A stretch of 54,949 bases of DNA from Campylobacterales bacterium (GTDB lineage Bacteria; Campylobacterota; Campylobacteria; Campylobacterales; QNZT01): contig JAOZKZ010000001.1 in assembly GCA_029935075.1 (NCBI GenBank), positions 1 through 54,949 on the forward strand, in the 5' to 3' direction. Below the pieces are notes generated by a model that saw only the letters and a program-made list of their open reading frames with translations, made no database searches and was not told the DNA's origin. Shown piece after piece: positions 39,819 through 40,282 of this stretch (positions are counted from its first letter, which is position 1; every line of letters begins with the position of its first letter). A program made the position numbers and the translations under genes.

Positions 39819-39851
39819 CTGTCCTTTTTATAAATAATACAAAAAGGACAG
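39819..39851 (+). promoter_or_regulatory. 11-bp perfect hairpin with a TATAAATA late box in the loop and the downstream RBS in its 3' arm
   Basis: ctgtccttttt (39819-39829) pairs with aaaaaggacag (39841-39851). The loop is ataaataatac. TATAAATA is at 39829-39836, the RBS aaagga at 39843-39848, and the GTG start at 39854. Confidence 0.75.
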
Positions 39852-39853
39852 AT

Positions 39854-40282
39854 GTGACAGTAACTGGGATTGAAATTGACCCGACAAAATCATACGATTA
39901 TAGTATATATTTTTCTGGGGGTTCGATAGTTGCTGACAGTTTCAGCAAAAATATCGAACCTTTTATGATGAATATAGATGAAACTAACTATGATAATACA
40001 GCAACATGGGATATAAGATATGATACTTCTGGTGTGCATATAGTACCTTATCCTTACCAAAAAGATTGTCTCCAAGGTGAAAGTATAGGTGGGTTTGTAT
40101 ATGTTAGATGTGGACTAAATTTACTCAATCCATTTGATGATTGTGTTGTTTATACAAGAGCATTTGATGATAGTTTCTCAACAGAATATTACGATATCAA
40201 TAACAGTTTTAACATCTGTACGGATAAATTAACAGAATTTAATACAGATTTTGATGCAGATTTTGCTATTGATTTAACATAA
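39854..40282 (+). CDS. hypothetical protein, first gene of the late/structural block (GTG start)
   Basis: GTG lies 5 nt after aaagga, directly after the hairpin. Confidence 0.55.
   Translation: MTVTGIEIDPTKSYDYSIYFSGGSIVADSFSKNIEPFMMNIDETNYDNTATWDIRYDTSGVHIVPYPYQKDCLQGESIGGFVYVRCGLNLLNPFDDCVVYTRAFDDSFSTEYYDINNSFNICTDKLTEFNTDFDADFAIDLT

Follow-up and report, generated by a model that had tools for sequence, protein, structure and literature searches.

A putative T4-type translational switch in front of a tail-fibre-like module in a divergent T4-like phage contig

How might a phage avoid translating the first gene of a late module when early transcripts run into that gene from upstream? The question is raised by a hairpin at positions 39817–39853 of a 54,949-bp NCBI contig (the whole of which was analysed and is hereafter called the window), at the point where a series of small early open reading frames (ORFs) gives way to a tail-fibre-like module whose first gene encodes a protein of 142 amino acids (aa). 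The initial annotation had read the element as a T4-style late switch, that is, a late-promoter box, TATAAATA, enclosed in a hairpin that hides the ribosome-binding site (RBS) of this gene. We consider it probable (roughly 70%) that the element is a temporal translational switch of the T4 type, placed where co-directional early and late genes meet, and the interpretation is supported wherever the sequence allows a test.

Hairpin, candidate promoter box and start codon at the junction

The sequence of 39800–39859 (cttcctttaatctcctttgtgATCTGTCCTTTTTataaataatacAAAAAGGACAGATgtgaca) contains, on the + strand, a perfect 13-bp stem formed by the 5' arm ATCTGTCCTTTTT (39817–39829) and the 3' arm AAAAAGGACAGAT (39841–39853) around a loop of 11 nucleotides (nt), ATAAATAATAC (39830–39840). 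The 5' arm, present only on transcripts that start upstream, holds the anti-Shine–Dalgarno (anti-SD) motif CCTTT, the loop bears most of the promoter box (39829–39836, + strand), and the 3' arm comprises the Shine–Dalgarno sequence (SD) AAAGGA (39843–39848, + strand), 5 nt before the GTG start codon, and the spacer up to that codon. The box, the SD and the GTG (39854) lie where the initial annotation had put them, and so do the arms ctgtccttttt (39819–39829) and aaaaaggacag (39841–39851) of the 11-bp stem that it described; the perfect stem, however, is 13 bp long, so that the GTG directly abuts it rather than sitting 2 nt beyond. In isolation the hairpin has a predicted folding energy of −14.8 kcal/mol (z = −7.9), and it is the longest perfect stem in the 55-kb window for loops of 3–15 nt. 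When the whole window was dinucleotide-shuffled 200 times, 5 shuffles (2.5%) held a stem of at least 13 bp anywhere, and for such a stem also to enclose one of the roughly six promoter–RBS cassettes described below by chance would be far less likely.

Predicted folding separates the two kinds of transcript that the switch would have to distinguish. On read-through RNAs starting at 39650 or 39750 the probability that the SD is unpaired is 0.002, compared with 0.76 on late RNAs starting at 39840–39842, and opening 39842–39868 costs 21.9 kcal/mol on the former and 2.3 kcal/mol on the latter; RNAs starting at 39838–39845 fold with the initiation region open. The expectation that read-through transcripts mask the RBS is thus borne out by predicted folding, with a helix that covers the SD and the whole spacer before the GUG, the sequestration that characterizes a T4-type temporal switch. 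RNAfold draws additional outer helices (39801–39815 with 39857–39874), which we discount as chance, given that 33% of shuffled flanks equalled them in a duplex test. A scan of the whole window with Rfam 15 gave zero matches at the gathering threshold, and the sole hit near the hairpin was a chance microRNA match (E = 0.78). An out-of-frame ATG-TGA (39852–39857) overlaps the GTG with one base on each side; on late mRNA this minimal AUG-UGA ORF could compete with the GUG or feed re-initiation to it.

Placement is what identifies the box as a candidate promoter. T4 late promoters carry the 8-bp TATAAATA at −13 to −6 with an AT-rich segment downstream (PMC2988020), and here the segment 3' of the box is ATACAAAAA. 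The octamer occurs 12 times in the window against 10 expected, that is, without overall enrichment, and only its placement is informative: 7 of the 12 copies end 8–30 nt before a called start codon (binomial p = 3e-7), as do 4.7% of the occurrences of composition-matched 8-mers (55 permutations of the octamer). This supports the view that the box behaves in a promoter-like manner in this phage. The cassette TATAAATA-N3-6-AAAGG-N5-7-start is found six times, at 7752 (−), 7756 (+), 12673, 16241, 25768 and 39829. Its copies at 12673–12680, 16241–16248 and 25768–25775 (all + strand) have no hairpin; at 7752–7763 two divergent boxes overlap (TATTTATAAATA), each followed by N4-AAAGG-N5-6-ATG and each serving a gene, which supports the putative promoter function. 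By the box-to-start distance of T4 (PMC2988020), late transcription would begin at 39842 (±2 nt, + strand), the second base of the 3' arm, so that late RNA would lack the 5' arm; the initial annotation, too, had late transcripts starting within this arm. We infer both this start site and the translational effect of the hairpin. Read in reverse, the palindrome offers TATAAAAA in place of the box, and we rejected a minus-strand promoter, for which there would be no minus-strand gene to serve.

The layout of the surrounding genes is that of a junction between two expression classes. A strong early-type promoter, tTTTAAGcaaaagtgTGGTATAAT, recurs in front of genes (413, 21062–21083, 22814, 23381, 31540, 32261, 35414, 36191, 36543 and 38185), and no intergenic extended −10 early promoter was found after 39.8 kb. 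Tail-fibre hits follow downstream (42989–43768, 45210–47039, 50729–51736 and 52215–52703). Given early promoters only upstream and tail-fibre hits downstream, the site would be a co-directional early-to-late junction, in keeping with its first description as the boundary between the early small-ORF region and the tail-fibre module. The nearest upstream intergenic early promoter (−10 element GGTATAATA, 38185–38193, + strand) is the probable source of read-through: the upstream genes lie on the + strand like the regulated gene, and a scan of 36000–41500 predicted no + strand intrinsic terminator. Early transcripts presumably continue through 39817–39853, with Rho-dependent termination a possibility. 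The last small early ORF (39556–39795, + strand), which is judged genuine and ends in ...LPEYFL like its paralogs, stops 21 nt upstream of the stem, a distance from which a terminating ribosome is not expected to reach the core helix.

Other members of this small-ORF family (~70–145 aa, ending in ...(H/Y/L)PE(Y/M)(F/M)L) occupy 1561–2836 and 37170–39795, their stop codons often overlapping the next start, and the family includes a 260-bp tandem duplication at 37615–38141. Between the last of them and the hairpin lie three tandem 10-nt units (CTTCCTTTAA twice and TCTCCTTTGT; 39786–39815, + strand), which begin with the last codons and the stop of the ORF and each contain CCTTT, which is complementary to the core of the SD; the units may represent extra anti-SD copies or scars of duplication.

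The gene that would be regulated (39854–40282, + strand) belongs to an orphan-like family of beta-rich proteins of ~150–200 aa, with no match in Pfam or PHROGs. Its GTG start is supported by 21 distant homologues (~150–250 aa) whose N-termini are co-linear with MTVTGIEID..., and the AAAGGA-N5 spacing before it is that of most genes in the window. The homologues sit in T4-like structural neighbourhoods (beside T4-gp15, terminase and large ORFs), and the modelled 142-aa product is itself likely to be structural. Downstream, the co-directional genes of 40297–54091 (+ strand) each have an RBS of their own and no early-type promoter between them.

On the basis of these observations, we propose the following sequence of events. 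During the early phase, promoters read by the host sigma factor (the last at ~38.19 kb) would yield transcripts that pass through the small-ORF region into 39817–39853, where the 13-bp helix would pair the anti-SD 5' arm with the SD-bearing 3' arm up to the GUG, and 30S subunits could therefore not initiate on the 142-aa gene. Later in infection, an RNA polymerase holoenzyme of the gp55 type would recognize TATAAATA at 39829–39836 and start at ~39842, producing an mRNA that lacks the 5' arm and whose 12-nt leader, AAAAGGACAGAU, would be open, such that the 142-aa gene, the first of the tail-fibre-like module, could be translated.

Precedents in T4 and analogues in other contigs

Reviews describe such control in T4 for e, soc, gene 49, I-TevI/II/III and segB, and in Aeh1 for mobE: read-through RNA of the early and middle phases alone can fold into the helix, whose 5' strand is missing from late transcripts (PMC3014915; PMC2988022). 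We read the e and I-TevI leaders directly from NC_000866. The predicted stability of the proven hairpins (e, −14.9; soc, −10.7; I-TevI, −16.4 kcal/mol) brackets that of the present one. The e leader, ttTATAAATAccttcTATAAATActtaggaggtattATG, resembles it in plan, with TATAAATA in the loop or 5' strand and a 3' strand that is the SD itself and runs up to the start codon; its late RNAs begin at the SD without the 5' strand, and early read-through RNAs go untranslated (PMC3014915). There are differences: the stem of e is imperfect and is served by two late promoters in tandem, compared with one promoter and a perfect 13-bp stem here, and e encodes a lysis enzyme, whereas the 142-aa protein heads a tail-fibre-like operon and starts with GUG. 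In the leader of I-TevI (the td intron ORF; tttAATAAATActtctatatttaaagaggtatttATG) the late promoter overlaps the 5' strand and the SD of the 3' strand abuts the AUG, as here, and the hairpin is restricted to read-through RNA of the early and middle phases (PMC2988022). However, I-TevI, I-TevII/III, segB and Aeh1 mobE are homing-endonuclease genes lying within early genes, unlike the present gene; I-TevI also has a DNA operator for autorepression, and its rationale (intron splicing and toxicity) is inapplicable here. With soc the locus shares a late promoter just upstream and a hairpin that blocks initiation on longer transcripts (PMC3014915), but the soc stem takes in the start codon, its loop holds the SD, and the promoter lies 5' of the stem. 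The initial annotation had equated the arrangement with all three genes, which is apt for e and I-TevI in geometry and stability and does not hold for the geometry of soc.

Beyond T4, the 142-, 305- and 581-aa proteins of the window retrieved no orthologous locus from collections of viruses, genomes and metagenomes. Distant homologues of the 142-aa protein give context without including an orthologous junction. Those that start 9–12 nt after a late gene (L029–L032) have neither promoter nor hairpin. In L027/L028 the homologue opens a unit after a divergent gene and is preceded by TATAAATA-ctat-aaaaaggag-gttgtt-TTG; this cassette lies inside a perfect 26-nt palindrome, TTTATAGTATTTATAAATACTATAAA, that leaves the RBS uncovered and is of the same kind as that at 7752–7763. 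Among these homologues, an RBS-masking stem is found only in the copy of the window, which follows same-strand early genes.

Closer analogues of the element itself came from IMG/VR, which we scanned for CCTTTTTATAAATA-N3-9-AAAAAGG with 7 bp of pairing required, a pattern derived from the window, so that the loci retrieved are a biased sample. Their stems reach well past the 7 bp that the pattern demands: 12 bp between a 2OG-Fe(II) oxygenase gene and a head–tail adaptor gene (L020/L009; L020 6822–6857), 21 bp after helicase and MazG genes and before a 593-aa ORF (L010 7630–7676), and 11 bp in a third locus (L016, minus strand, ~5871). All have nearly the same sequence, (T)ATCTCCTTTTT-ATAAATA...-AAAAAGGAGAT followed by the start codon, such that the loop encloses TATAAATA and the 3' arm bears the SD, and all stand at co-directional junctions from metabolic or replication genes to a structural or unassigned gene on contigs of uncultivated marine T4-like phages. 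These candidate loci precede genes that are not homologous to the 142-aa gene. Together, the context dependence of the homologues and the IMG/VR analogues appear consistent with the proposed switch.

If so, a design in which a late promoter lies inside an RBS-masking hairpin would occur far outside the T-even group, in a deeply divergent T4-like phage; known for T4 lysozyme, soc, gene 49 and homing endonucleases, it would here guard the entry to a tail-fibre-like module. The element would give a confident annotation of the late promoter and GTG start of an orphan gene and a map of early and late units in the contig, and its signature (anti-SD, TATAAATA, SD and start codon, in that order) may be usable to annotate temporal boundaries in metagenomic T4-like genomes.

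Weighing the switch against other readings

Several observations count against the proposed switch. An orthologous locus from which covariation or conservation could be read was not found in any collection searched (megablast of 38500–42000 against phages, tblastn of the 581-aa neighbour, a protein search that returned only the query itself, and exact look-ups). Exact look-up recovered a single further copy, on a Logan contig beginning within the 142-aa gene; the phage is present in SRR21545383, and a search for sibling contigs through the repeated early-promoter sequence found none in viral or metagenome collections. An RBS-masking stem is also absent from four of the five sister cassettes, including that at 25768, which itself follows early genes, so the hairpin is no general rule in this phage; the remaining pair (7752/7756) pairs weakly, because two divergent cassettes face each other. 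Homologues of gp55 and gp33 were not found among the ~60 ORFs of this partial contig scanned against PHROGs, and neither was the gp45 clamp. Both gp45 and gp55 belong to the core gene set of every T4-related phage (PMC2988020). We infer a gp55 homologue elsewhere in the genome. The AlphaFold model of the product (AF2, 12 sequences) is beta-rich but of low confidence (pLDDT 61), and its weak fold matches to phage fibre and receptor-binding beta-sandwiches (E ~0.02–0.1) do no more than suggest a structural role. Finally, the hairpin masks the first cistron alone, and the downstream tail-fibre genes keep their own open RBSs, such that the switch by itself would not silence the module on read-through RNA.

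Could the stem then have arisen, or act, in some other way? That it is merely a chance palindrome without regulatory effect, the T-run before an A/T-rich box and the A-rich SD (AAAAAGGA) being complementary by accident, seems to us most improbable. Its core (CCTTTTT/AAAAAGG) is indeed of low complexity, the CCTTTTT of one IMG/VR family resembles the end of a terminator-like hairpin upstream, and the shuffled windows mentioned above do occasionally yield a 13-bp stem; yet a further 6 bp of mixed sequence (ATCTGT/ACAGAT) extend beyond that core, the single longest stem in 55 kb falls exactly on a promoter–RBS–start cassette, and, whatever its origin, a helix of −14.8 kcal/mol over the SD would form on any read-through RNA. 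We also think it very unlikely that the inverted repeat serves as a DNA operator or structural element, in which a dimeric phage protein bound to the two 13-bp half-sites would control late transcription and the RNA hairpin would be a by-product. The box does lie between two perfect half-sites, T4 offers precedents over late promoters (the I-TevI operator and DsbA sites; PMC2988022; PMC2988020), and palindromes also surround TATAAATA at 7752–7763 and in L027, where the RBS is uncovered. However, those two palindromes are explained by pairs of divergent overlapping promoters, the centre of symmetry at 39835 differs from that of the promoter, the half-site sequence is confined to this one place in the window, and the 3' half-site coincides exactly with the SD and spacer, ending at the start codon, as an RNA mask needs and an operator does not.

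A role chiefly in early transcription or RNA fate, by pausing, termination, processing or 3'-end stabilization and possibly with Rho as a partner, is unlikely as well, if less so than an operator. The hairpin stands exactly at the early/late boundary, and just upstream of it lies the strongest C-over-G tract of the regions coded on the + strand (39661–39830; C 34 and G 10 per 120 nt, ~4 standard deviations above the mean), a rut-like stretch that is C-rich and G-poor. This tract is mostly inside the translated ORF 39556–39795, though, and a pure terminator would need neither an SD within it nor a start codon abutting it. Neither strand shows a U-tract after the stem (GTGACAGTAAC on +, CACAAAGGAG on −) and the terminator scan reports nothing at the site, which led us to reject an intrinsic terminator. 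An effect on RNA fate would in any case be compatible with, rather than exclusive of, a translational mask.

Because each downstream fibre gene has an RBS of its own, some further insulation, for instance by polarity, may be in place. We therefore raise, as a doubtful but conceivable extension of the switch, the idea that the hairpin triggers a polarity-based insulator of the whole co-directional tail-fibre operon (at least 14 kb). The untranslated first cistron would expose ~430 nt of naked RNA directly after the C-rich tract, and Rho or a phage factor would end early read-through before the independently translatable fibre genes are reached; late transcripts, translated from the first codon, would be immune, and the tandem CCTTT units would act as back-up anti-SD partners. 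Only if this were true would the locus pose a new mechanistic question.

The phage contig and its possible late island

Close relatives of the contig are absent from all collections searched. Nearly all of its genes are on the + strand, and they include RNA ligase 1 (RnlA/gp63; 441–1514; phrog_562, E = 6e-60), a GroES/gp31-like protein (2850–3227), NrdA split by a homing-endonuclease ORF (26669–30108), NrdB, an ATP ligase of the gp30 type (33447–34763; phrog_114, E = 6e-110) and a gp34 proximal-fibre domain (52215–52703). Judged by these genes, the contig comes from a divergent T4-like phage (Straboviridae sensu lato), of which it is a fragment. Identities of the hallmark genes are low (30–48%); the gp30-type ligase finds almost all T4-like phages by tblastn, the best being Vibrio phage Va1-like (48%) and Campylobacter T4-like (37%) sequences. 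Core structural and replication genes are missing from the window, and the lack of polymerase, capsid and terminase genes indicates that it is only part of a larger genome. The two nrdA ORFs (534 and 349 aa) are overlapped by the homing-endonuclease ORF (28266–29072); as no group I intron was detected there by Rfam, nrdA may be a 'fractured gene' instead of an intron-bearing one.

The sister cassettes belong largely to a region (6345–16670) that looks like a late-expressed island within the early region, with TATAAATA cassettes heading its units. Three of the cassettes head genes whose products begin with M-x-F-K-(D/E/N)-Y-L-x-E, a start common to eight tandem paralogs (259–300 aa, 7779–14439), to the ORFs at 14439–15644 and 16263–16670 and to the divergent one at 6345–7736 (−), and the remainder of the eight-gene array, including four further paralogs with this start, falls within the same cassette-headed units. 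The paralogs of the array also share LP(L/V)SPKFFEE and a C-terminal KKYQKLKA. The shared N-terminus resembles the capsid-targeting sequence of T4 internal proteins (IPIII starts MKTYQEFIAE, as read from the T4 genome), and many IMG/VR contigs, too, have TATAAATA cassettes in front of genes with such N-termini; the proteins of 6345–16670 may be a large set of packaged or injected proteins.

Other repeated elements occur in the window. A ~50-nt unit consisting of TATAAATA and tttaaccactttttaagcaaaagtgTGGTATAAT is present twice (20–70 and 374–424), three tandem TGGTATAAT −10 boxes lie at 21057–21091, and five perfect copies of the 13-mer TATTAAGCTAAAG (34753–34817) stand just before the gene at 34825. 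The early-promoter sequence TTTTAAGCAAAAGTATGGTATAAT(A) matches 25 of 25 bases at L033 524–548 (CANPYF010000005.1, a metagenome-assembled genome of an uncultured Ruminococcus sp.), a bacterial promoter on a gut contig of 50% GC that has nothing else in common with the phage; this match, the extended −10 promoters and the AAAGGA RBSs together hint at a Gram-positive gut host, which would be unusual for T4-like genes. At the far end of the tail-fibre-like module, the 467-aa ORF at 52688–54091 and the truncated ORF at the contig end are built of 165-nt (55-aa) tandem repeats (~7 and ~4 copies, respectively; 52879–54949) with the motif ...FGYSVSIYGDTCIIGA..ED..., which look like FG-GAP or beta-propeller blades.

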